Positions 23,942-61,116 of a stretch of 64,000 nt of DNA are shown one piece after another; within the stretch, counting starts at the first letter, position 1, and every line of letters starts with the position of its first letter. The notes under the pieces were generated by a model, which was not told the DNA's origin, made no database searches, and was given only the letters and a program-made list of their open reading frames with translations. The DNA is from a virus. The stretch lies in the IMG/VR virus record IMGVR_UViG_3300046370_000603. The stretch is one strand, 5' to 3'. The position numbers were made by a program, and so were the translations under genes.

Positions 23942-25436
23942 CATAATTGTTTGCTTGCTTTAATCTGTTGTTATTATGAGCGGAGAAGGTTTATCAGTTA
24001 GTTTTAGAAGAACGCCCCTTACGGACAAGTCTAATGCGGAACTCCTTGAAGAGTTTCAAAAGATCATCTACAATAGTAGAGTCATGAGACACATGAAATG
24101 GTATGGCAAAGCTCATACTCTCGACATATTAGAACATGGTGACGACAATCGACAAAAGTTTGAGCAAGAATATGTTGCAATTATAGATACTTTTCAATTT
24201 GAGATTAGTGTTTATGATTCTTGGTATGAAGATGCTGATCTTTATGAGTCGCATGAAGTAGAAGATAGTTTTGTATCTCTTGCTCTTGAGTTCGCTAAAG
24301 ACAATAATTTAATGTATTTCTCCCAAGGTTTTCCTGCTGAATGGATAGAGACAGAAACTGCTGATGGAGAAAGATGTTGGAATCATTATAGTGTAAAACC
24401 CGATGATAAAAATATTGACAAAATATGCAAGGTATGGCATGATTATGGCATGAAAATGATTCAAGCAGAGCAATATGGTCAAACCGATGAGATGAAAAGT
24501 TTTTATTGGGCAAATGCAAGAGATCAAATTAAAGAATTAATGGAACATGAATATGAATACGCAAAATAGGTCAGAAAGTTGGTTGGTAGAGCAATATAAT
24601 CGAAATCGTTTGCCATCAAAACATATTTCAAATACAAATGAAATCTCAAATGCTTATTCAGAAAGTTGGTTGACGATCAGGCAAGAAGATGATACAGACA
24701 ATTGGTCTACCCCGATTATGTGGTTAGATGACAGATCAGAATATGATCTCTTTGCGTCTAACGATCTCAATATAGATTGGGTAGAAGAGATGGATAAAGA
24801 AGGCTCTCCAATCTTAGAAGATGATCATCTTTGCAGAGATATTTGCATTGAAGTAACTTGTCCATCGAAAAAACTTGACAAGCGTAGAGCGGTGGGTTAT
24901 AATATAGACTTTGATTGGAACTAATTATGAAACTATCACTTACATTGCACAAAAAAACTTATAGTATTGATTCGGACGAATCATTTGACGGCACAAATCT
25001 TAATGAATTAGTAGAACAATTTAAAGGTTTGCTCGTCAATGCAGGATTTCACCCAAGCAATGTAGATGATATGTTCAATACAGACTATCAATGGTTTACT
25101 GAAGAAGAAAGAAATGATAATACGCAAGGTCATTTAAAAGATAGCAGATACAATGATGGTTACACCAAAGGTTGGGATGAAGCGTTACACCATCGCAAAG
25201 TTCAAGATTTTCAAGATAATTTATATAAAAATATGACTGAATAAAATTATGATTCAAATAGAAGACGCTAATCAAGAAAAATATCATATAAATCCTAAGC
25301 AAGTTGTTTATGTAAAAGAAAGAATGCACATGGGTAAAATGATGTATAAAATTATGCTTACGAATGGCGAGGCATTAATGACAGAAAACGAGCATGGTGC
25401 AAAATGTATCATCTCTTCAATAAGATCGAGATCACA

Positions 25437-36810: not shown

Positions 36811-39108
36811 ATGATAATCACACAGGAAAAATCTAAGGAAGTAATTAGTTCACACGATTTCGAGCAAGTTAATTGCACGATTGATGCAGAAGATATGCGT
36901 TATGTTGCATCTCTTCTTCGCAATAACTACTCTAACACTCGTCTTGCAGTAGTTAGAGAAATTAGTGCCAATGCTCTTGATGCCAATGCTGAAGCAGGTG
37001 TTACTCGTCCAATCGAAATCAAGTTACCAACTTCCATGAATCCAACATTTGCAGTTCGTGATTTTGGGGGTGGACTTAGCCAAGAAGATGTTTTCGGACT
37101 TTATTCCAAGTATGGTAAATCAACCAAACGCACATCCAACAATTACATTGGTGCTTTCGGTATTGGTAAATTTGCTCCACTTTCTTATGGTGACAATTTT
37201 ACTTGCGTTTCTTACCATGATGGCACAAAAACTTCTTACAATGTATTTGTTGATGAAAATGACGATACCAAGATCACAAAGTTGTTTGAAGAACCAAGCA
37301 ATGAACCAACAGGTTTAAGCATCGAAGTTGCAGTCTCCGAAGAAGATCGTAACGAATTTAGAGATGTTGTGCAAAAATTCTTTCGTTTCTTTTCTGATTC
37401 TGATATGCCAAAATTTCTTGGAGTCGAAGAAGATTTTATACAAACTCCTAAAAAAGTTTTGTCAAGTAAAACTGATGAATGGTTCTTTGCAGAAGATGAC
37501 AATAGGCATGGGTACAACCATTATTATTCTCATGTTCTTATGGGTAGAGTTGCTTATCCAATTGATCCAAATGCAATTATTGTTAGCAATTTTGTTTCCA
37601 ACGAAGATTCTCGCAGAATAATTCAACAACTTTTACAACAAAGTAATTTCTACTTTCGTGTGCCTCTTGGTTCAGTAAGATTGCATCATAGTCGTGAGTC
37701 GCTAGAATATAACAAAGCAACTCAAAAAGAAATTTGTGCGATTCTTTACAGAGTAAGTCAAGATATTCAAACTATTGCAAAAGAAAAACTTGCCGATAGT
37801 GAAGATTTGTGGGACGCAAAGAAAAACTATGCTCAAGTCGTTAATGCTCTACCTTATCAAGTAAGAGGAATATTTGAGAATAGTTTCGAGTGGAAAGGTA
37901 TCAAAATTGATAATTCTACATTCCAAAGAGACTATCAATTATCAGAAGATTTGATTATTACTCAATACGAAAAAGTTGAAGATAAAGATTCTCGCAATGG
38001 ATTCAAGGTAAGAGCAGATAAAACAAATCGCATTTATTGTCAAGACGATTATCTTGTGATGATGCAAGACATTGATTCTTCTCATGGCAACAATCTTAGA
38101 GTTCGCACTTTGATGAATGATTTACCCGATCTTAAAGGGGTTTTCGTTGTTCATCCTACTAGCGAATGTGGCAAATCAGAAGTTTATGATAATTGGCAAT
38201 TTGATCTTGTTGATGGAAAACATATTAGATATTCTTCTCTAGTAGAAAAGGAAAAAATTGTTCGCAATAAAGTTTCGGGTACAAGTCGTGCTTGTATTCC
38301 ATTGTTCAAGATGAAGTTTGACAAATCTAGTTATGCTTATCGTAATGCAGATTATTGGCAAAATGTCAACGAACCAATCAATTCACTTGAGCTAGGCGAA
38401 ATTGAAGGTTCTGTCAATGGTAAAATCATTTATGTTCCAATCAAAAACTACAAGGTTGATAGTGAATCTTATGATCTTGACAGAGTTTACAAAATCTGCA
38501 AGGGAGTTCGCAAAAAAGCCGAAGATAATTCTGATGAAAAAAATCTTCAATTATTCGGTGTGCGTTCAGCAGATGTCAAAAAACTAGATAAAAGTACATG
38601 GGTATCATTTTTTGATTTTTATCTTGACTATTGCAAGAACATCATTCGTAACAATAAGAAAGAATGTCAATCAGCATACAAAATAATTCAATTCAAAAAA
38701 TCTACCGATAATAATTTCGCTGAATATCGTTGGAGTTATGGTCAAGTATTTACCAATAACACATTTGATGTTTCTCTTTTCGGTGACCATTTATTTGCTC
38801 GTTGTGCAGAAAATTGGAAACTCCTTATGGAAGAGAATACAGATGATCGTAGATTTAGTGTTGCTATCAATGTCGTTAAGTTGGGTGATGAAGCATGGTT
38901 AGATGATATATTGGATACAAAAGTTGATGCAGAATCAATTATGCAGGATTTCAAATTACTTGATAAAAATTATCCTTTACTTCAAGTTGTTACAAGTCAT
39001 GTTAGCAATTGGGTCAATCTAAAACAAGACAATGACAAAAATGTAACCAACGAAACTCTCTTTGAATACATTTCCTTATGTGATGTGAATGGGGGAGAGA
39101 GAGCGTAA
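36811..39108 (+). CDS. rIIA: rIIA-like protein (GHKL/Hsp90-type ATPase N-domain)
   Basis: YSN..LAVVREISANALDA, VRDFGGGLS, YGKSTKR.SN..IGAFGIG; followed by rIIB-like gene. Confidence 0.85.
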   Translation: MIITQEKSKEVISSHDFEQVNCTIDAEDMRYVASLLRNNYSNTRLAVVREISANALDANAEAGVTRPIEIKLPTSMNPTFAVRDFGGGLSQEDVFGLYSKYGKSTKRTSNNYIGAFGIGKFAPLSYGDNFTCVSYHDGTKTSYNVFVDENDDTKITKLFEEPSNEPTGLSIEVAVSEEDRNEFRDVVQKFFRFFSDSDMPKFLGVEEDFIQTPKKVLSSKTDEWFFAEDDNRHGYNHYYSHVLMGRVAYPIDPNAIIVSNFVSNEDSRRIIQQLLQQSNFYFRVPLGSVRLHHSRESLEYNKATQKEICAILYRVSQDIQTIAKEKLADSEDLWDAKKNYAQVVNALPYQVRGIFENSFEWKGIKIDNSTFQRDYQLSEDLIITQYEKVEDKDSRNGFKVRADKTNRIYCQDDYLVMMQDIDSSHGNNLRVRTLMNDLPDLKGVFVVHPTSECGKSEVYDNWQFDLVDGKHIRYSSLVEKEKIVRNKVSGTSRACIPLFKMKFDKSSYAYRNADYWQNVNEPINSLELGEIEGSVNGKIIYVPIKNYKVDSESYDLDRVYKICKGVRKKAEDNSDEKNLQLFGVRSADVKKLDKSTWVSFFDFYLDYCKNIIRNNKKECQSAYKIIQFKKSTDNNFAEYRWSYGQVFTNNTFDVSLFGDHLFARCAENWKLLMEENTDDRRFSVAINVVKLGDEAWLDDILDTKVDAESIMQDFKLLDKNYPLLQVVTSHVSNWVNLKQDNDKNVTNETLFEYISLCDVNGGERA

Positions 39109-39206: not shown

Positions 39207-40361
39207 ATGAATCAAGTACCATATCAATTAACAGAAAATTCACTCACAATCTTTTGGGAAGGCAAGCCACACACAATTCGCAAAGATCATGTAAATTTCC
39301 AACTCGCCAAGAAAGCTATTCTTGATGCTAGATATGATGATCTCGGTGATCTTATTGATGTTGCCAAGGCAGTCGAAAATTTTGTTGAAGGTGATATTGA
39401 AGTTAAGGATGAAGTCGTTTATTACAAAGGTCATCGCTTGCATGGTGTTGTTGTTGACAAATTACTTGATATGCTTCGTGCAGGAATGAAAGATTCTGCT
39501 CCTCTTACCAACTTTATCACTCGCTTGCAAGCTAATCCAAGTGCAAATTCAGTAAATGAACTTTATTCTTTTATGAGTTATAAGTCTCTTGCGAATACTC
39601 CCGAAGGTAAGGTTTTGGGGTACAAAGGTGTGCAATCTGATTATTGGAGTACAACAGGTAATGCCGATACAATTGTATTGCAAGGGAAAACTAATGATCG
39701 TCACCAAATTCTCAATGAGGTTGGTGCAACAATTGAAGTTGCTCGTAGATGCGTAGATGACAATAAGGATAATCATTGTTCTTTTGGTCTTCATGTTGGT
39801 TCATTCGATTATGCTGATAGTTGGGCAGGAGAAGATGGAAGATTGCTTCTTGTGGAGTTTGATCCTGCTGATGCAGTATCTGTACCAACTGATTGTGACT
39901 TTCAAAAACTTAGGGTTTCTAAGTACAAGGTGATCTCTGATATTAGCGACACAAGAAAAGAGTTAAATAAACCTGTCTACGAGGCTAATAAGCCCATTTA
40001 TGGATCAGATGATGATGAAGACTGCGATTATGACGATGATGATTCTGATTTTGTTGATGAAGAGATGGCAGATAGAGTTGCCGATCATTATCTTAATAAT
40101 CCTAAAGATTTATTAGCTAATAATCCTCATTTGCTAGATAGTTATGAAGATAGAGTTGATTCAGTTGTGGAGAGCGTTCGCAAGTATGTTACTAATAAAT
40201 TAAATCTAGGAATTTTTCCAACAATTAAAGATATAGCAGATTTAAGAATTTGTAAATCCAATAAAATTGGATATGTTGGAGTAAAAAGTATTGTCGAAGA
40301 GTTAGGTTATGTTCTTGATTTTCTTGACTTGCCTCTTGGTCAACAAATTGTGGTCGAGTGA
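39207..40361 (+). CDS. rIIB: rIIB-like protein
   Basis: NPS..SV.ELY.F, GYKGV, VDD..NHCSFGLHVG, DPADAVSVP.D...KLRV..Y.V. Confidence 0.85.
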   Translation: MNQVPYQLTENSLTIFWEGKPHTIRKDHVNFQLAKKAILDARYDDLGDLIDVAKAVENFVEGDIEVKDEVVYYKGHRLHGVVVDKLLDMLRAGMKDSAPLTNFITRLQANPSANSVNELYSFMSYKSLANTPEGKVLGYKGVQSDYWSTTGNADTIVLQGKTNDRHQILNEVGATIEVARRCVDDNKDNHCSFGLHVGSFDYADSWAGEDGRLLLVEFDPADAVSVPTDCDFQKLRVSKYKVISDISDTRKELNKPVYEANKPIYGSDDDEDCDYDDDDSDFVDEEMADRVADHYLNNPKDLLANNPHLLDSYEDRVDSVVESVRKYVTNKLNLGIFPTIKDIADLRICKSNKIGYVGVKSIVEELGYVLDFLDLPLGQQIVVE

Positions 40362-41409
40362 TATTTTTGTAGAATTTTATTACTTGTAATATATAATATA
40401 TGTATATGAGTAAAACAATTCAAACATTAGAAGATGTATCAAATATTGACGAGCTAAATGAATTAATAGGAGAAGATGATATTTCCGAAGAAGAGTATCA
40501 AGATATGGTAAAATATATTCAAGATAAAAATTCTTCTAATAAATAGGTAATCCTTTCTCTCCTATGGGTATTGTGGCGAGGTTTCTCTTTGTCCTTGGTC
40601 AGAATTCATCACCCGATCCGTAACCACATAAAAGCGTGATCTAATTTATTTTCAAATAAACCTTACAACTATGAATTTACACAAGAAAATGATAATTTCA
40701 AATAATTTTTACTTTGTGCTTGCTTTATATATCAATATTCATTAGTATATATAACATAATACAATATATATAGAGAGAGAATATAAGATATAATATAATA
40801 AATCACACAAGAAATAATAAATATATTGAAATGTAATAGATTATAAATATAATGATTGAGGAGTACGCAAATTAATTATATAAAAATAAGATGAGAATAA
40901 AAGTATTGGCAATTATAAAAAATTATTTATTAAATAAAAAAATAAAAGATAAACAAAATAATTCAAAAGAAAAAAATTTAAAATATGTACGAAATAAATA
41001 TGGTTTTTTTTCACTTGAAAATAACAAAAAATAAACAATAATAAAAAATTTTACAATTAAATAAATAAATTAATTAAATAATAAATTATTACAAATAAAA
41101 TGAGCATCGAAGATCAAAGTGTAAATTTCGTAGAAAATCACATGGAAACGAGTTTCAGCGAAATAATGTCTTCAAAAATCATCAAAGAAATGTATTGGAT
41201 TGATGTTAAGGAAGGTGCAAGGGCGGTAGCAATAATGGGCGAAATAACTGAAGAGAAAAAAATAGAGAGTAATTTAATATGTCTCTTTCCAATATTTAAA
41301 CCAAAAGAAGATTAACGCAAATAATTACTTATTAGGATAAAAAATAAAAATAATTAAAACAAATATTATTGTTAATAAAAAAACATCCCACAATTCTAAA
41401 AAAGTCATA

Positions 41410-41610
41410 TTATTTATTATTATTAATTTTTTTGTTTATTTCTATTTTTCTTAATAATATTTCAAATTGAGTGTCACTCATATTGTTATATTGATGCCAA
41501 GCATATTCCTTTATCCTCATTAATCTTTTTTCGGGAGTTCCATTCACCCAATAAAACGCACTAGAGCTTAATAAGTCTCTTACAATGTAATTATATATCT
41601 CCATATTCAT
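41410..41610 (-). CDS. Small hypothetical protein
   Basis: GTGTA-N9-ATG on the minus strand sets the start at 41610 (MNMEIYNY...). Confidence 0.5.
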   Translation of the reverse strand: MNMEIYNYIVRDLLSSSAFYWVNGTPEKRLMRIKEYAWHQYNNMSDTQFEILLRKIEINKKINNNK

Positions 41611-42277
41611 AATAATAATTACACCCAAATAATTATACAAAAAATTTAATATAATAAAACACACATAAAATAATTCTTGACAATGTGTGAAAAATATATT
41701 AATGTATTTCTATCAATCATAAATAAAGCGTTAAAAGCGTAAAACAAAAAAAACATTCTATGAAATATATATTAATTACATTATTATTTTTTATAAGTAG
41801 TTGTAGGCATTGTGAATATAATGTCAGCAACATTTCACATAGTTGCCCGAAAATAGGACACGGACCTTGCTACCTCTGCGATACCAAATAATATTATGAA
41901 AATTTTAACCATATTAATCTTATCTGTCTTACCAATATTCGGTGCTATTAATCCTTTTGATGATATAGCAGAAATAAAAGCAAAAAAATTAGACATGAAG
42001 CGTCAAGTATATTTCTTTTGTGCTGATATAAATTGGGCTTGCCAACAAATGACTAGCTTATCAAAGAAATGGGATCCCCAACGCATGGGTATTGAATTCA
42101 CTCCACCGCCCCTTACCATGCCATTAAAAAGCCTACCCAAATATAAATGGCACACTAATAGCAAAAAATTTATTGATGTAATAAAAGAAATTGGTGATAA
42201 ATATAATTGTATTTGGGAATTTAAAGGTGGTAAAGTTATATTTAAATATGTCGAAAATAAATATATCAAAAATAAAG

Positions 42278-42306
42278 TTGACAAATAACATATTATATTA
42301 TATAAT
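42278..42306 (+). promoter_or_regulatory. Consensus sigma70 promoter upstream of a non-coding unit
   Basis: TTGACA-N17-TATAAT, perfect match. Confidence 0.8.
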
Positions 42307-42381
42307 GTATATATAAAATTGAGAAAGATAAACTCAAATAAATAAAATAATCTAAAATTTTTGTTCTTTATAGTATTGGTA

Positions 42382-42645
42382 GACCTCTCCGAGCAGTTGG
42401 AAATTGTTGGAGGCTCGGAGGGGTCGCTTAAATTTTGGAAGGGCTTATAATCCTTCCTGTGGGTGACCCGAATAAGCCTGTCGTGAGCGGGCTAAGGTAT
42501 GCAAATTCCCTGTGGTGGGGCGGTAGAGTTCAATCGAATGAGCCGATGACAAATACCATGTCTAATTTGTAGTTGGAAGTAGGTACACCATGAACTGATG
42601 TTCACGCCGAAAACTTGAAGGTATACAGTAATCCTTCCCCACACT
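42382..42645 (+). ncRNA. Putative structured non-coding RNA, unassigned family
   Basis: GC-rich island with no ORF >=60 aa, multiple hairpins, TGTGGG/CCCACA closing helix, between a consensus promoter and a terminator. Confidence 0.6.
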
Positions 42646-42666
42646 CTATTTATCATCCCCCACCCC

Positions 42667-42722
42667 AACCCTTCTCGGTAACTGCCTAGTAATATCCCAT
42701 TACTAACCGAGAAGGGTTTTTT
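42667..42722 (+). terminator. Intrinsic terminator
   Basis: AACCCTTCTCGGT...ACCGAGAAGGGTT + T tract. Confidence 0.75.
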
Positions 42723-43165
42723 GTTTTGACAACTGCGTTTTTATTTATTATAGTATACTCATGAAAACATTAAAAGACATACTATCAAATTACGGGTACA
42801 TCAACAGCAATCAACTTAAGGAGATAGCAGAGCACTTTCCTGCGTTCAGGGTGGTAATAAAATGGAGCGGGCTCCCCCGCGAGCGTCTTCCAGCCTGGGA
42901 GGCAATATCTAGAATCAAATCTGTAGAGGATCAAGATATCGATTACTGTAGAGAAGTATTTATATCAGGTAAAGAATATAATATATTACTAGACGCCTTT
43001 AATATTGCAAAATAAAAATAAATAACAAAAATATATTATGGAAATAATACTCGTATTAACGGTAGCCCTAGGAGTAAAAATGTTATTAGATGAAATATAA
43101 AAATAAATAAAATATAAAGTAAATAAATAAATGATGAAATAAATTTGATTATGATTACCTCCTTG

Positions 43166-43194
43166 ACCCCCACTGTAACAGGTGGGGGTTTTTT
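43166..43194 (+). terminator. Intrinsic terminator
   Basis: ACCCCCAC...GTGGGGGT + TTTTT. Confidence 0.75.
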
Positions 43195-43216
43195 GTTGCA
43201 CAATTCTACTGTTTCA

Positions 43217-43288
43217 TAAGTCTTTAATTATCAAGCACTTGCGAGCGCGGCTGCCGTGCTACATAAGTCCTTGATTGACAAGCTTTTA
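43217..43288. repeat. Dyad element copy 1
   Basis: TAAGTCTTTAATTATCAAGCACTTG-N22(GGCTGCC)-TAAGTCCTTGATTGACAAGCTTTTA. Confidence 0.92.
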
Positions 43289-44926
43289 CAAAAGCATTTT
43301 TATTTACTTTTTATTTGACAGAAACTAAAAATTAGTTTAGTTTTATATTATGCAAGAGACAATAGATATTACACCAACATGGTCAGCACTCATTCTTCCG
43401 ATGATTGAGGTGTTGAAGAACCCAAAAGCAGGATACGAAGACAAGCAAAATGTTATATTTGAATTAAAGCGTTTGGCTAAAATCGTTGACGACCAAAACG
43501 CAAAGATCAAAGCAAATGACAAAAACAAAACTAATTAAAGAAATTTTAGATCAAATGAATTATCTAAGCCCACGAGAATTGATGAAAATTTTCGAGATGA
43601 TTTATGGTCAAGGAGAAGTTGAACTAAAAGAAGTAGATTGGAGTAAGTAATGACATTATCAGAATCAATTATGGACATCGTTAGAGGCAACCTCGCATGG
43701 TCAGACCCCATGTCAACAGTTTGCCTCGATCAACATGAGCGTCACCCCGAAAAGTTTCCAAAGGGTAGCTCGTTTCAAACTGAAGATGAATCTTTAGCAG
43801 ACATCATTCGAGACTTGACATTATTACAAAATGAGCTTAGGATAGAATCATCTTTTCAATCAGCACAACTATAACACAAGGAAAAATCATGACAACAGTA
43901 TTAGACACACCCGAACAAATCGAAATGTTTCGCTACAAAACTCTTCTTAAAGGGTTAAGGCTCGAGACTTTAGGAATGCAAATGAGCAGGGGCAAATCTT
44001 GCTATTCTATCATCAAACAAGAGTTCGGTCTCAAAGGTAGCAAGCAAAAAGTTTTCGATCAATTCAAATTAATGTTAGAACAAGTAAACGAAAGGGCAGT
44101 ATAATGACAGCATCACAAGTAGAAGCGAGAGTAGAAAGTTGGAATTGGAATATGAATATCTTTGAGATTTATGATGAACTTAGAGATGGACATTCAGCAA
44201 AAGATCAAGAAAATTTACTTTCTTTTGCCTATCGTTATTTTAACAAAGACAAAATGATTTTAGAGCTTGCCTCTCATTTTGGAATCTATAACATAGAGGA
44301 TGATAACAATGAATAATTACATAGAAGCAACCTGCATCGGCAGTCCACTAGGTTTGCCCGAATACAATGAAGATACTGAGCAATGGGAAGTATTTTTTGA
44401 AGAATCAGAAACGCCTTGGTTTCCATACGATATTCCAAGAGACATTCTATCCGTGAGCTTTGAGTCGGCAGATTTGGCTTGCGATGTTTACAATCACTAC
44501 AACCAAAACCCCGTAAAAGAAGAAACTCAAGATGAAGAAATTACTAATTAAAATTTATCGCTTTTTTAATCCGCTATACCAAGTGGTTTATCAAACCAAA
44601 GATGGTAGAACCGAAATGTACACAATTACAAAACCTATGCACGAAAATGAATTCGGCAACCAACAAGAGGGAAAAGATGTCGTTGGCTTCAGATCTTTTT
44701 GCGTGAATAAAGATGGTATCAGATCTTTTCGTTATGACCACATTGTATCCCTAACCAAAATCTAATTATGAAGAAAGAAATACAAAATAAAAATACCCTA
44801 CAAGAGAGCTTGAGAAGATTTGGGCATATGCTTGCCATGCGTGAGCAGCGCGGCGATAATTCAACGGAATACAAAAAGAAACAGGCTATGCACGAATCTA
44901 TGCTAAGAAAGCTTTACAACCAATCG

Positions 44927-44998
44927 TAAGTCATTGATGCTCAGCCACTTAGGTGGCGGGCTGCCGTGCTACATAAGTCCTTGATTGACAAGCGTTTA
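44927..44998. repeat. Dyad element copy 2
   Basis: TAAGTCATTGATGCTCAGCCACTTA-N22(GGCTGCC)-TAAGTCCTTGATTGACAAGCGTTTA. Confidence 0.92.
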
Positions 44999-45060
44999 AA
45001 AATTTAAAATTATTTAACTTTTTTCTTGCAGTAATTAAAAAAATTGCTTAGTATGTTTAC

Positions 45061-45474
45061 ATGATACTAAGAAACCAACAAGATCCACGATACACAATCA
45101 AAAAGAATCGTCCCGTATATGTTTACAAGAATCTACATAAAGATTGTTGGAGCATCAAGCAACATGGATTAGTAAAAGCTCACATTCCAAAGGATCATGC
45201 TATTGGATTATGGGATTGCTATTTTCATGTCGATGCCAAAGGCAGAGAAAAAGTTCTTCGTGAGAAGCGTAAGAATGTTCATGCTTTTGTCAAGGGCTAC
45301 CTTCAAGATGCTGAGAATGTATCTCGCAATCCCCAAGTTGTCACCAGGAAAGTCGAGGTAACATATAATCCTTACAAGTATGAGACTTTTGTCGAGAAGG
45401 ATACCGAAAAGTTTGCGTACTATGCAGACGAAGTTTTATTAACACACAACAAAGTAACCGCTTATATGTCATGA
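45061..45474 (+). CDS. Conserved phage hypothetical protein
   Basis: VYKNLHK.CWSI...GREKVLREKRKNVHAFV.G...YNPYK motif recognised from other phages. Confidence 0.6.
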   Translation: MILRNQQDPRYTIKKNRPVYVYKNLHKDCWSIKQHGLVKAHIPKDHAIGLWDCYFHVDAKGREKVLREKRKNVHAFVKGYLQDAENVSRNPQVVTRKVEVTYNPYKYETFVEKDTEKFAYYADEVLLTHNKVTAYMS

Positions 45475-45832
45475 ATATTACAACAGCATTAGAAATTGTA
45501 TTAGACCTAGCCAATCAAAATGTTATTGACGATCCTGAAATGAAAGAGGAGGCATCAAAACAAAATGAAGCTATTGAATGGGTTGCATATTATTTAGAAA
45601 ATTTTATAAAGAAAGGTAAACATTAAAATGAAAGAAGAATTATACTCAATTAAAACCGCCATTGACGGACTCAGCGATGAGATACTAGAACATCGCAGAC
45701 ACGCAAACATGGACGACCTCGTCAAGGTAATGAAGAATATCAACGACAATCTTGTTGCAATTAGTTTCGACTTAAAAGATCTAGTTGAAGCAAAAAAGTT
45801 TCAAAATGAGTTGACAACCGCACTCAGATAGG

Positions 45833-45904
45833 TAAATCCTTTATAGTCAGTCACTTAGGTGACGGGCTGCCGCGCGATCTAAGTGCTTGATATTCAACGA
45901 TTTA
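45833..45904. repeat. Dyad element copy 3
   Basis: TAAATCCTTTATAGTCAGTCACTTA-N22(GGCTGCC)-TAAGTGCTTGATATTCAACGATTTA. Confidence 0.9.
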
Positions 45905-46346
45905 AAAAAATCAAAATTACTTAACTTTTTTCTTGCTATAATTAGGTATTTAGCCTACTATGTATATATGAAAGCGAGAGAGATAAAGATCAGAAAACCA
46001 ATTCTTTTTACTAAGTCCCGCCCGCACAAAGTTAAAAACAAGACAATCCACAGAAAACTCAAACATAAGGAATTATTAGCATGAATATCAGCGAAGACTA
46101 TTTAGACAATGAAAACCCAAATGCAGACGAAGTAATGACTCGAGCCATGAGTTGGCTTTGGAAACACTTCATTGAACCTAACACAGATCACATTACAGAA
46201 GAACAAGCTGAAATGCTTACAATGATTGGCGTTAGCTTTAAAATGATTGCAGAACAAGCTGATGCTTACGATCAAACTTTTGAAGAAAGTCCATATTTAA
46301 ACAATTAACTCTTGACAAAAAACATTATAACTATTATTATACTATC

Positions 46347-58823: not shown

Positions 58824-59257
58824 AAAAAGAAATTAAAATTGTATTAATAGATTTAGATAAAACACTGTGGAGATTTGACAGTTGGAATCAAGGTGTAGTC
58901 TCCGAAGAAAAACTTAGAAATTTTTTATTCCCAGAAGCTCTAGAGGCTATAGAATTAATTAAAAATAAAGGTTACAAGATAGGTATAGCATCTGCCAGCC
59001 CTTCGTCAACAATTTGTCATATTTATTTAGATAAATTATTTCCAAAAGATTATTTTGATATAATAATTATTCACCCTACATACCCATATAAAACTTATCA
59101 CTTTAATCAAGTTGTAGAAAAATTTGGTTATAGTTATAATAATATATTAATGATTGATGATTTAGAACCTATTATCGAGAACGCTAAAGCTTTAGGGGTT
59201 CAAACAATTCACGCAAAATCAGGATTATCAAAAAACTCTATAATTGACTTATTGTAA
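58820..59257 (+). CDS. HAD-superfamily phosphatase (MDP-1-like)
   Basis: DLDKTLW, IAS, K, MIDD. Confidence 0.75.
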   Translation: MKKEIKIVLIDLDKTLWRFDSWNQGVVSEEKLRNFLFPEALEAIELIKNKGYKIGIASASPSSTICHIYLDKLFPKDYFDIIIIHPTYPYKTYHFNQVVEKFGYSYNNILMIDDLEPIIENAKALGVQTIHAKSGLSKNSIIDLL

Positions 59258-61116
59258 TGACTTGGGAACCAGGAATTCAAAAACGTAAAACACTTACAAA
59301 AGATGTAAACGAGGAGATTAAATCTTTAGAAGGATTTCTATCTGAAAACGAAGCTAAAATATTACTATATAAATTTTTAAGAGAAAATATCACTTTTAGC
59401 ACAAACTTAATAGCTGGAGTGGATTTATTTCCTTTTCAGCACATGGCTATTAAGGCTATGTTTGAATCAGATTATTTTTTAGGTATATGGTCTCGAGGAA
59501 TGTCCAAGTCCTGGACAACGGGGATTTTTGCCTTTATGGACGCCATTATGAACCAAGGTGTGGATATCGGTATATTATCAAAATCTTTTAGGCAAGCAAA
59601 AATGATTTTTAAAAAAATTGAGGATATTGCAGCCAAACCTGAAGCTAAATACTTAGCAAATTGTATAACAAGAGTTTCTAAACAAAACGACGAATGGGTC
59701 ATGGAGATAGGATCTAGTTCAATTAGAGCGTTGCCTCTGGGTGACGGTTCCAAGCTTAGAGGTTTTAGGTTTCATAGAATTATTATCGATGAGATGCTAC
59801 TCATGCCTGAGAGAGTTTACAACGAAGTTATTGTGCCATTCTTGTCTGTCGTTCAAAACCCAAAAGAACGAGAGGATATGTATAACCTTGAAACAAAGCT
59901 GATTAAACAAGGCAAAATGAAAGAAGAAGATAGATATGTGTGGCCTAACAATAAATTGATTATGCTATCTTCAGCTAGTTACAAATTTGAATATTTATAC
60001 AAATTATATGAAAACTTCGAACAACTTATATTAAATGAGAATGACAGTAATGCAAATAGATCTATAATGCATTTCTCATATGACTGCGCCCCGAAACAAT
60101 TGTATGACCAGAATCTAGTTGAACAAGCTAAATCAACAATGAGCCAAAGTCAGTATGACCGAGAGTTTGGAGCAATTTTTACTGACGATAGCTCAGGATA
60201 CTTTAAAATATCAACAATGCAAGAGTGTACCATTCCAGAAGGGTCTGCGCCAAGTGTTGAAGTAAAAGGGCTGGAGGGTGATAAATATATATTAGCATTT
60301 GACCCGAGTTGGGCAGAGTCCGAAAGTTCTGACGATTTTGCCATGCAAGTTTTTAAGCTTAGTGAAAAAACTGGTGTCGCAACCTTAGTTCACGTTTACG
60401 CTATGGCTGGAGAGAGTTTAAAAAATCATATTAATTATTTTTATTATTTATTAAATAATTTTAATATTGTTGCTATTGTAGGTGATTATAATGGAGGAGT
60501 TCAATTTATAAATGCTGTAAAGGAAAGTTCTTTATTTAAATCTTCTAATATTAAAATCAATATAATTGAAACAGAATTTGATGATTTAGAGAATTACCAA
60601 AAGTCTTTAAGAAGCGCTAAAAGAGAATTTGCTAAAGAAGGATTACCTTGCATACTCAGGAAACCTACTTCGGAATGGATACGCCGAGCCAATGAACTTC
60701 TTCAAGCTAATTTTGACCACAAAAGAATATGGTTCGCTTCACAAGCTATAGACGATCATTTTCAGTCTCAAAGAAGAAAAAAAATTCCAATTAAAAATCT
60801 AAGGTTTATGAATTTCGCTGAAGAAGAAGAGAAACAAAGCGATGGCGCTAAAATGATAGATTTAATTGAACATCAATACGATATGATATCGTATACAAAA
60901 GGACAGTGCGCGTTAATTGAAGTGCGTTCTTCGCCCCAAGGAAATCAAACTTTTGATTTGCCATTAACCTTAAAGAAAACAACTGGCCCGAGTAAAGCCA
61001 GAAAAGACTGCTACTCAGCATTAGTTTTGGGAAGCTGGATGATTAAGATATACTCAGACATTCATCACTTTAAAGACGAGACTTTAAATACGTTTGTGCC
61101 AATGTTCATAAAGTAA
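59257..61116 (+). CDS. terL: Terminase large subunit
   Basis: LFPFQ, SRGMSKS Walker A, LRG.R...IIIDE Walker B, LSSA, nuclease domain AFDP..DD..KD.YSAL. Confidence 0.85.
   Translation: MTWEPGIQKRKTLTKDVNEEIKSLEGFLSENEAKILLYKFLRENITFSTNLIAGVDLFPFQHMAIKAMFESDYFLGIWSRGMSKSWTTGIFAFMDAIMNQGVDIGILSKSFRQAKMIFKKIEDIAAKPEAKYLANCITRVSKQNDEWVMEIGSSSIRALPLGDGSKLRGFRFHRIIIDEMLLMPERVYNEVIVPFLSVVQNPKEREDMYNLETKLIKQGKMKEEDRYVWPNNKLIMLSSASYKFEYLYKLYENFEQLILNENDSNANRSIMHFSYDCAPKQLYDQNLVEQAKSTMSQSQYDREFGAIFTDDSSGYFKISTMQECTIPEGSAPSVEVKGLEGDKYILAFDPSWAESESSDDFAMQVFKLSEKTGVATLVHVYAMAGESLKNHINYFYYLLNNFNIVAIVGDYNGGVQFINAVKESSLFKSSNIKINIIETEFDDLENYQKSLRSAKREFAKEGLPCILRKPTSEWIRRANELLQANFDHKRIWFASQAIDDHFQSQRRKKIPIKNLRFMNFAEEEEKQSDGAKMIDLIEHQYDMISYTKGQCALIEVRSSPQGNQTFDLPLTLKKTTGPSKARKDCYSALVLGSWMIKIYSDIHHFKDETLNTFVPMFIK

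Follow-up and report, generated by a model that had tools for sequence, protein, structure and literature searches.

The question raised by positions 42278–42722 (+ strand) of the virus record IMGVR_UViG_3300046370_000603, analysed here as a window of 64,000 nucleotides (nt), is whether they encode an RNA that is a gene product in its own right or a leader that controls the gene behind it. A first-pass annotation had described a structured non-coding RNA with its own promoter, boxA-like motif and terminator, and had placed it in no known class. Comparison with related loci upholds the first part of this description, all three elements being conserved around a structured RNA, and overturns the second, as the core of the stretch is a manA RNA (Rfam family RF01745). 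We consider it probable that the stretch is a self-contained manA-family RNA gene of ~410 nt (~42313 to ~42722), whose product would act in trans. The sequences show family membership, conserved anatomy and covariation; that the RNA is transcribed, where its ends lie, whether it binds Nus factors or assembles in the cell, and what it does there are matters of inference.

The core was identified in an Rfam 15 scan of the whole window, run at gathering thresholds. RF01745 matched 42437–42647 (+ strand) with 79.3 bits (E 1.6e-18; gathering score 55.2 bits), covering positions 1–192 of the 192 in the model. Since the core matches this family above its curated threshold and over the whole model, the RNA does not belong to an unknown class; a match to a known Rfam family was the outcome that had been named beforehand as refuting novelty. 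The class is already catalogued, and the stand-alone arrangement is not described in the manA literature. A permissive Rfam scan of 40000–46000 gave nothing further of note besides manA, and no tRNA or tmRNA was found in the stretch, in keeping with the first-pass annotation. The 211-nt core comprises the 185-nt multibranch domain described there together with the GGAAGG/CCTTCC hairpin. Reading of 41900–43400 located all other features listed earlier as well, among them an exact consensus promoter, the TGTGGG/CCCACA closing helix with the named inner stems inside it, the 13-bp stem and the terminator. The GC content of the stretch (0.46–0.48, compared with 0.17–0.33 around it) and its lack of any open reading frame (ORF) of at least 60 amino acids (aa) likewise agree with the earlier description, the longest ORFs being 58 aa on the minus strand and 45 aa on the plus strand.

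Relatives were gathered through homologues of the 84-aa ORF that follows the RNA and through a scan of viral contigs with a conserved manA 15-mer. The 15-mer scan returned 72 loci, only about half of which were manA, the rest being chance matches. A match to RF01745 was present ~100 nt upstream of the ORF in 14 of the 14 relatives of the 84-aa ORF with enough upstream DNA. The manA loci were sorted into two groups. Group B (clade B) consists of the window and 29 further distinct loci from viral contigs, 27 of them usable, which score 64–93 bits against RF01745, plus three contigs binned into metagenome-assembled genomes (MAGs). Group A is canonical manA (17 loci checked, 161–181 bits). In clade B, the order of elements is promoter P1, leader pseudoknot, boxA-like motif, insert site, manA core, linker, terminator and a second promoter, P2 (Table 1).

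The fold of the core is maintained in clade B. RNAalifold, applied to 23 aligned members, predicted 43 pairs, 16 of which show changes on both sides that keep pairing; the core helices exceed chance. Hairpin P1 of the core also covaries (by eye, alignments A1 and A2). The window RNA does not form the outer part of P8 found in the Rfam model, the covariance-model alignment containing non-standard pairs there. Mean column identity of the clade-B core is 84%, the sequences being fairly close to each other. The conserved manA blocks GUGAC/GAAUAA, GUGGUG, ACCA and UAUACAGUAAUCC are all present in the window and are invariant or nearly so in alignment A2. Single-sequence folding yielded z = -3.4, and the reverse strand was equally good (z = -3.6); because both strands fold equally well, it is the Rfam match, together with the promoter and the T-run, that assigns the RNA to the + strand.

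Two pairs of loops are complementary as well. Loops L5 and L7 match each other in nearly all clade members and have undergone a double change from UGGUG/UACCA to UGGCG/UGCCA in three loci (L024, L084 and L085), with L007 as a U-G intermediate. This covariation fits an intramolecular pseudoknot and an intermolecular kiss alike. Loops L8 (ACUG) and L9 (CAGU) are complementary in the window, and variants such as CUGA/UCAG (L077, L079 and L080) keep 3–5 pairs, as seen by eye in alignments A1/A2 and unquantified; variation in L9 is under-sampled, as some loci were collected with a 15-mer from this loop.

Upstream of the core, the perfect promoter sequence TTGACA-N17-TATAAT occurs twice in the 64 kb, compared with an expectation of 0.11. 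The other copy (24875–24903) has a spacer that is GC-rich, unlike that of promoter P1. TTGAC(A/T)-N17 with a -10 box stands at the equivalent place in 25 of the 25 clade-B loci with upstream DNA, and transcription is predicted to start near 42313. A few nt past this predicted start, ~10–18 nt past the -10 box in clade B (45 nt in L071), begins a 5' hairpin that forms part of a small H-type pseudoknot, a feature absent from the first-pass annotation. Its stem S1 is retained in compensated variants (TTAAG/CTTAA, TCGAG/CTCGA), and relatives show S2 as GGAT/ATCC, GGGC/GCCC, GAGGC/GCCTC, GGGGC/GCCCC or AGCT/AGCT. In the long-loop subtype, to which the window belongs, 4–5 loop bases form S2 with a segment past a 12-nt A-rich tail. 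In alignment A3 of this subtype, 93% of cells pair, compared with 20–55% when the 3' partner is slid, and four of the nine pseudoknot pairs change on both sides; in the short-loop subtype S2 is weak or absent. A permutation of the loop-to-tail pairing over all leaders reached the observed value in 93 of 2000 trials. A/T triplets match everywhere, which makes this permutation uninformative, and the count from alignment A3 was used in its place.

The architecture of the leader, and only the architecture, resembles that of preQ1-I pseudoknots, with a 5-bp stem, a loop pairing past an A-rich tail and an overall size of ~35 nt. The sequence of S2, however, varies freely in clade B, and the leader lacks an equivalent of the cytosine that contacts the ligand and is conserved in preQ1-I. 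When Rfam was searched with the leader by itself, E values up to 10 being allowed, the matches (RsaH, csRNA, a snoRNA) did not rise above chance level. Assignment of the leader to the preQ1 type or another known small pseudoknot class was therefore rejected.

The boxA-like motif, correctly located in the window by the first-pass annotation as TGTTCTTTA, is kept among the relatives. Most of them carry TGATCTTTAACATTTTA, which is identical at 15 of 17 positions to the boxA-spacer ugcucuuuaacaauuua of E. coli rrn (PMC2724277, Table 1). No other leader element persists as widely: L028 retains the motif despite having no 5' hairpin, and L071 does so in a leader that has diverged in all other respects. 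By contrast, the 13-bp stem cannot be counted as part of the conserved RNA. Its pairing contains one U-G wobble that is possible only as + strand RNA. It is a lineage-specific insert, absent or replaced in relatives, and its arm sequence is not repeated elsewhere in the window. The fixed site between the boxA-like motif and hairpin P1 is either empty (L076, L077, L080, L082, L084 and L085) or holds unrelated structured inserts of ~44–155 nt, such as those of ~60 nt in L073, L074 and L079, of ~70–110 nt in L042, L001 and L030 and of ~155 nt in L075. L001 and L030 share one insert of ~100 nt, closed by TTGAGAG/CTCTCAA, and the MAG-binned L090 has ~110 nt at this site. Large structured inserts may be extra RNA domains or small mobile hairpins.

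Downstream of the core, all clade-B loci contain a linker that varies in length between 12 and 83 nt, includes extra hairpins in some loci and is not conserved in sequence. It is followed in 25 of 26 loci by a hairpin with a T-run (free energy, dG, -15 to -29 kcal/mol), the stem sequences of which are almost wholly different between loci. In the window, the 3' end of the RNA is predicted to lie near 42720–42724. Promoter P2 comes directly afterwards: in 23 of 25 loci an invariant TTGAC stands 5–9 nt past the first base of the T-run. A -10 box lies 16–17 nt past this TTGAC, and 20 of 22 distinct loci have an ATG 6–7 nt further on, with no Shine-Dalgarno sequence. The neighbouring gene is therefore predicted to be leaderless, and the 84-aa protein is probably translated from a leaderless messenger RNA (mRNA). 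With a leaderless promoter of its own for this gene, the RNA would not be a 5' untranslated region (UTR) switch of the 84-aa ORF.

Canonical manA is arranged differently. In group A, a sigma70-type promoter stops ~7 nt short of hairpin P1, and the 40–60 nt past the core bring a ribosome-binding site and the beginning of an ORF, so that all 17 loci sit in a 5' UTR position; none of the 17 has a true counterpart of the terminator. The window shares with canonical manA the same helices and conserved blocks, and both are found in phage DNA, but it scores 79 bits as compared with 161–181, and the peripheral helix P6 and the outer P8 diverge. Clade B is not in a 5' UTR: its core is preceded by a leader of ~70–225 nt and followed by a terminator belonging to the unit, after which the next gene has a promoter to itself. 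To the eye, going by the N-terminus, the ORF after group A manA looks gp32-like (MSF..LKK...ERLWKPEVD) in the 3' flanks of L002, L013, L016, L022, L026, L031, L045, L055, L059, L060 and L066, and transaldolase-like in L011. The mRNA of T4 gene 32 bears an autoregulatory leader pseudoknot, and the position of manA upstream of gp32 may merit attention in this light. A single clade-B locus, L028:2002–2242 (minus strand), is without both the 5' hairpin and the terminator. In this locus the boxA-like motif and the manA core come straight after the promoter, with an ATG ~17 nt past the core; the locus may thus represent a transitional form linking the stand-alone layout to that of the 5' UTR type.

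Table 1. Features of the manA RNA unit and the adjoining gene in the window.
Feature	Position	Strand	Remarks
Promoter P1, TTGACA-N17-TATAAT	42278–42306	+	promoter score 12/12
5' leader H-type pseudoknot	42319–42353	+	stems S1 and S2, covarying
Pseudoknot stem S1, TTGAG/CTCAA	42319–42323 with 42333–42337	+	
Pseudoknot stem S2, AGAT/ATCT	42326–42329 with 42350–42353	+	
Pseudoknot loop 3, A-rich	42338–42349	+	12 nt
boxA-like motif TGTTCTTTA	42362–42370	+	8/9 bases of E. coli rrn boxA ugcucuuua
Variable insert, 13-bp hairpin	42382–42425	+	42382–42394 paired with 42413–42425; present only in the window
manA core (RF01745)	42437–42647	+	full-length covariance-model match
manA hairpin P1	42437–42457	+	within core
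manA closing helix, TGTGGG/CCCACA	42458–42463 with 42638–42643	+	
Loop L5, GUGGUG	42512–42517	+	within core
Loop L7, ACCA	42555–42558	+	within core, inside loop 42551–42559
Loop L8, ACUG	42594–42597	+	within core
Loop L9, CAGU	42626–42629	+	within core
Linker, pyrimidine-rich, G-poor	42648–42666	+	between core and terminator
Intrinsic terminator hairpin	42667–42718	+	core stem 42669–42679/42706–42716, dG -25.2 kcal/mol
Terminator T-run	42717–42727	+	follows hairpin
Promoter P2, TTGACA-N17-TATAGT	42726–42754	+	score 11/12; -35 box overlaps terminator T-run
84-aa ORF, conserved family	42761–43015	+	outside the RNA; 15 relatives in viral contigs at 61–90% identity

On the reading that we favour, a sigma70-type RNA polymerase of the host would start at promoter P1, near 42313, and transcribe the leader with its small pseudoknot and boxA-like motif, then the lineage-specific hairpin insert and the 211-nt core, before stopping at the strong intrinsic terminator near 42720 to give an RNA of ~410 nt. 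The 84-aa ORF would be expressed separately, from its own promoter and as a leaderless message. The 5' pseudoknot and the 3' terminator hairpin could protect the ends of the RNA. A self-contained trans-acting gene is suggested by the conservation of promoter, leader, core and terminator as a block, by the independent, leaderless promoter of the neighbour and by the persistence of the unit before different genes, as in L024, L027, L030, L033, L039 and L071.

How such an RNA might act is suggested by a 2026 cryo-electron microscopy preprint (bioRxiv 10.64898/2026.07.01.735769), which reports that manA RNAs assemble in vitro into octamers, decamers and an icosahedral cage of 60 subunits. The building blocks are pentamers, joined by kissing loops between molecules, either L5-L7' with L8-L9' or a variant set of contacts (bioRxiv 10.64898/2026.07.01.735769). 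The window RNA belongs to the same Rfam family, its contact loops are complementary (UGGU/ACCA and ACUG/CAGU) and L5-L7 covaries in the clade; given the preprint, it might act in trans as a multimer formed through L5-L7 and L8-L9 contacts. The cages were, however, seen in vitro with other members, whereas clade B is known from genomic anatomy alone. By analogy with ribosomal RNA (rRNA) leaders, the boxA-like motif might in addition recruit host Nus factors, which would favour processive transcription and good folding of an untranslated RNA. The leaders of rrn operons (boxB-boxA-boxC) and lambda nut sites likewise place a structured element and then a boxA-like sequence at the start of an untranslated structured transcript; in clade B, however, the element is a pseudoknot, with no boxB hairpin, and a strong intrinsic terminator follows ~350 nt later. 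Assembly of the clade RNA into multimers or cages and recruitment of Nus factors by the boxA-like motif are both analogies, and each falls well short of being probable in our estimation.

Several points weigh against this picture. The ends, abundance and timing of the RNA are predictions only. The 84-aa gene follows the RNA in most relatives, and a link in cis is possible, for example through regulated read-through or occlusion of promoter P2. Pairing of the terminator's G-rich 3' arm with the linker, or with the 3' strand of manA, which is C-rich, is conceivable; such C-rich and G-rich strands are of low complexity, and chance complementarity between them is unavoidable. The 9-mer class TGHTCTTTA is not enriched in the AT-rich window, where 8 were found and 5.0 expected. 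As the 9-mer is statistically ordinary there, the boxA-like motif draws its weight only from conservation among fairly close relatives, and binding of NusB/NusE to it is putative. Finally, the published assemblies are those of other manA RNAs, obtained with both RNA and Mg2+ at high concentration, and the preprint calls manA putatively cis-regulatory and establishes no biological role (bioRxiv 10.64898/2026.07.01.735769).

The cis link could take the form of an attenuator, in which a ligand or protein bound to the core decides the fate of the terminator (42667–42727) and so gates read-through from promoter P1 into the 84-aa gene and other early genes. Weinberg et al. 2010 (Genome Biol 11:R31; PMC2864571) described manA as a riboswitch candidate, and both Rfam and this literature class it as cis-regulatory. 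Canonical manA loci do lie in 5' UTRs, the succession of aptamer-like core, terminator and gene in clade B is the textbook order, and the 84-aa gene comes next in ~20 of 26 clade-B loci. We nevertheless regard an attenuator as unlikely. The conserved promoter of the 84-aa gene is so placed that its mRNA would start at the ATG, and a read-through transcript would offer no Shine-Dalgarno sequence to this gene. A core-to-terminator distance of 12–83 nt, with extra hairpins at some loci, fits poorly with a fixed expression platform and supports a trans-acting gene. The terminator stems change freely and the 3' strand of manA is fixed, so that no conserved antiterminator pairing is evident. The unit is also kept before unrelated genes, and no manA ligand is reported in the literature searched.

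Alternatively, the leader could act in the manner of a nut site, the pseudoknot and boxA-like motif rendering polymerases from promoter P1 resistant to termination, so that they would pass the manA terminator and others beyond it into the early cassette array, with the manA core as a passenger or processed by-product. The conserved succession of structured element and boxA-like motif, the 15 of 17 bases shared with the E. coli rrn boxA-spacer in most relatives and the position of promoter P1, which lies close to where a long + strand run of early genes begins and is the strongest promoter-like site there, are consistent with such a role. Yet no N-like protein was identified, every downstream cassette has a promoter of its own, so that read-through is not needed, and retention of the 211-nt conserved, covarying manA fold would be left unexplained. 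Moreover, the action of rrn-type Nus complexes is directed mainly at Rho, and they are not known to overcome strong intrinsic terminators. We judge this explanation to be quite improbable.

A very unlikely reading is that of a trans-acting antisense RNA, whose A-rich leader or pyrimidine-rich linker would pair with phage or host mRNAs such as the leaderless early 5' ends: the promoter-to-terminator layout and the 3' terminator hairpin with its U-tail do recall bacterial small RNAs, and UCAU in the linker complements AUGA, with matches of 7 nt to the start of the ORF at 44300 and of 6 nt to that at 45061, but the longest matches to the whole window, including the array of dyad elements for which complementarity had been proposed earlier as a check, are 11–17 nt long, A/T-rich and no better than those of shuffled RNA, the best duplex with the first 14 nt of 33 predicted leaderless starts is 8 nt, duplexes of 7–8 nt are scattered over the RNA, only 3 of the 33 starts match the linker (by 6–7 nt), and the linker sequence is not conserved among relatives.

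The 84-aa protein itself gave no match in Pfam, PHROG or among PDB folds (best PDB E 0.29). Its AlphaFold2 model is a small alpha/beta fold (predicted local distance difference test score, pLDDT, 86); an assignment as helix-turn-helix-like, made by eye, was dropped in view of this model and the lack of a significant PDB match. Past the 84-aa ORF lie a 20-codon ORF (43039–43101), which would encode the hydrophobic peptide MEIILVLTVALGVKMLLDEI, and a clean intrinsic terminator (43165–43200; 10-bp stem, T-run) just ahead of the first dyad element.

The phage that carries the RNA gene is no known cyanophage. The window encodes rIIA-like (36811–39108) and rIIB-like (39207–40361) proteins and a large terminase (59257–61116), and among 50,697 phage records no close relative was found, as blastn with the region and tblastn with the 84-aa ORF and a 691-aa ORF gave no match. 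For the 130-aa ORF upstream, viral contigs yielded no relatives. Exactly one manA match is present on each of four related viral contigs that are rated 100% complete (194–214 kb). The contig of L074 (G005; 83,536 bp) is classed as a provirus by IMG/VR, and the other relatives are classed as linear virus contigs. The three MAG-binned relatives (L088, L089 and L090) bear the labels Cellvibrionales, Rickettsiales and Neomarinimicrobiota, two of which are of marine type (as labels only). They are probably phage contigs mis-binned with bacterial genomes; L088 (JAYQMT010000004.1; 210,818 bp) has the size of a whole phage genome. As the three lineages are mutually inconsistent, the binning is unreliable and no host can be deduced from it.

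At its widest, the proposal is that in an uncultured clade of ~200-kb phages manA is a strongly promoted early gene and no riboswitch, whose RNA-only product forms a multimer or cage and whose rRNA-like leader borrows the Nus machinery of the host. In this full form we hold it to be doubtful. If true, it would provide a natural setting for the manA cages observed in vitro and would add to rRNA a second structural RNA made with the help of boxA. The manA family as a whole has counted as an orphan riboswitch candidate for 16 years; the layout of clade B is the one to be expected if the RNA product acts in trans. With two defined constructs, the 211-nt core and the 410-nt unit, and with manA of the 5' UTR type as a clear comparison, the idea is testable.

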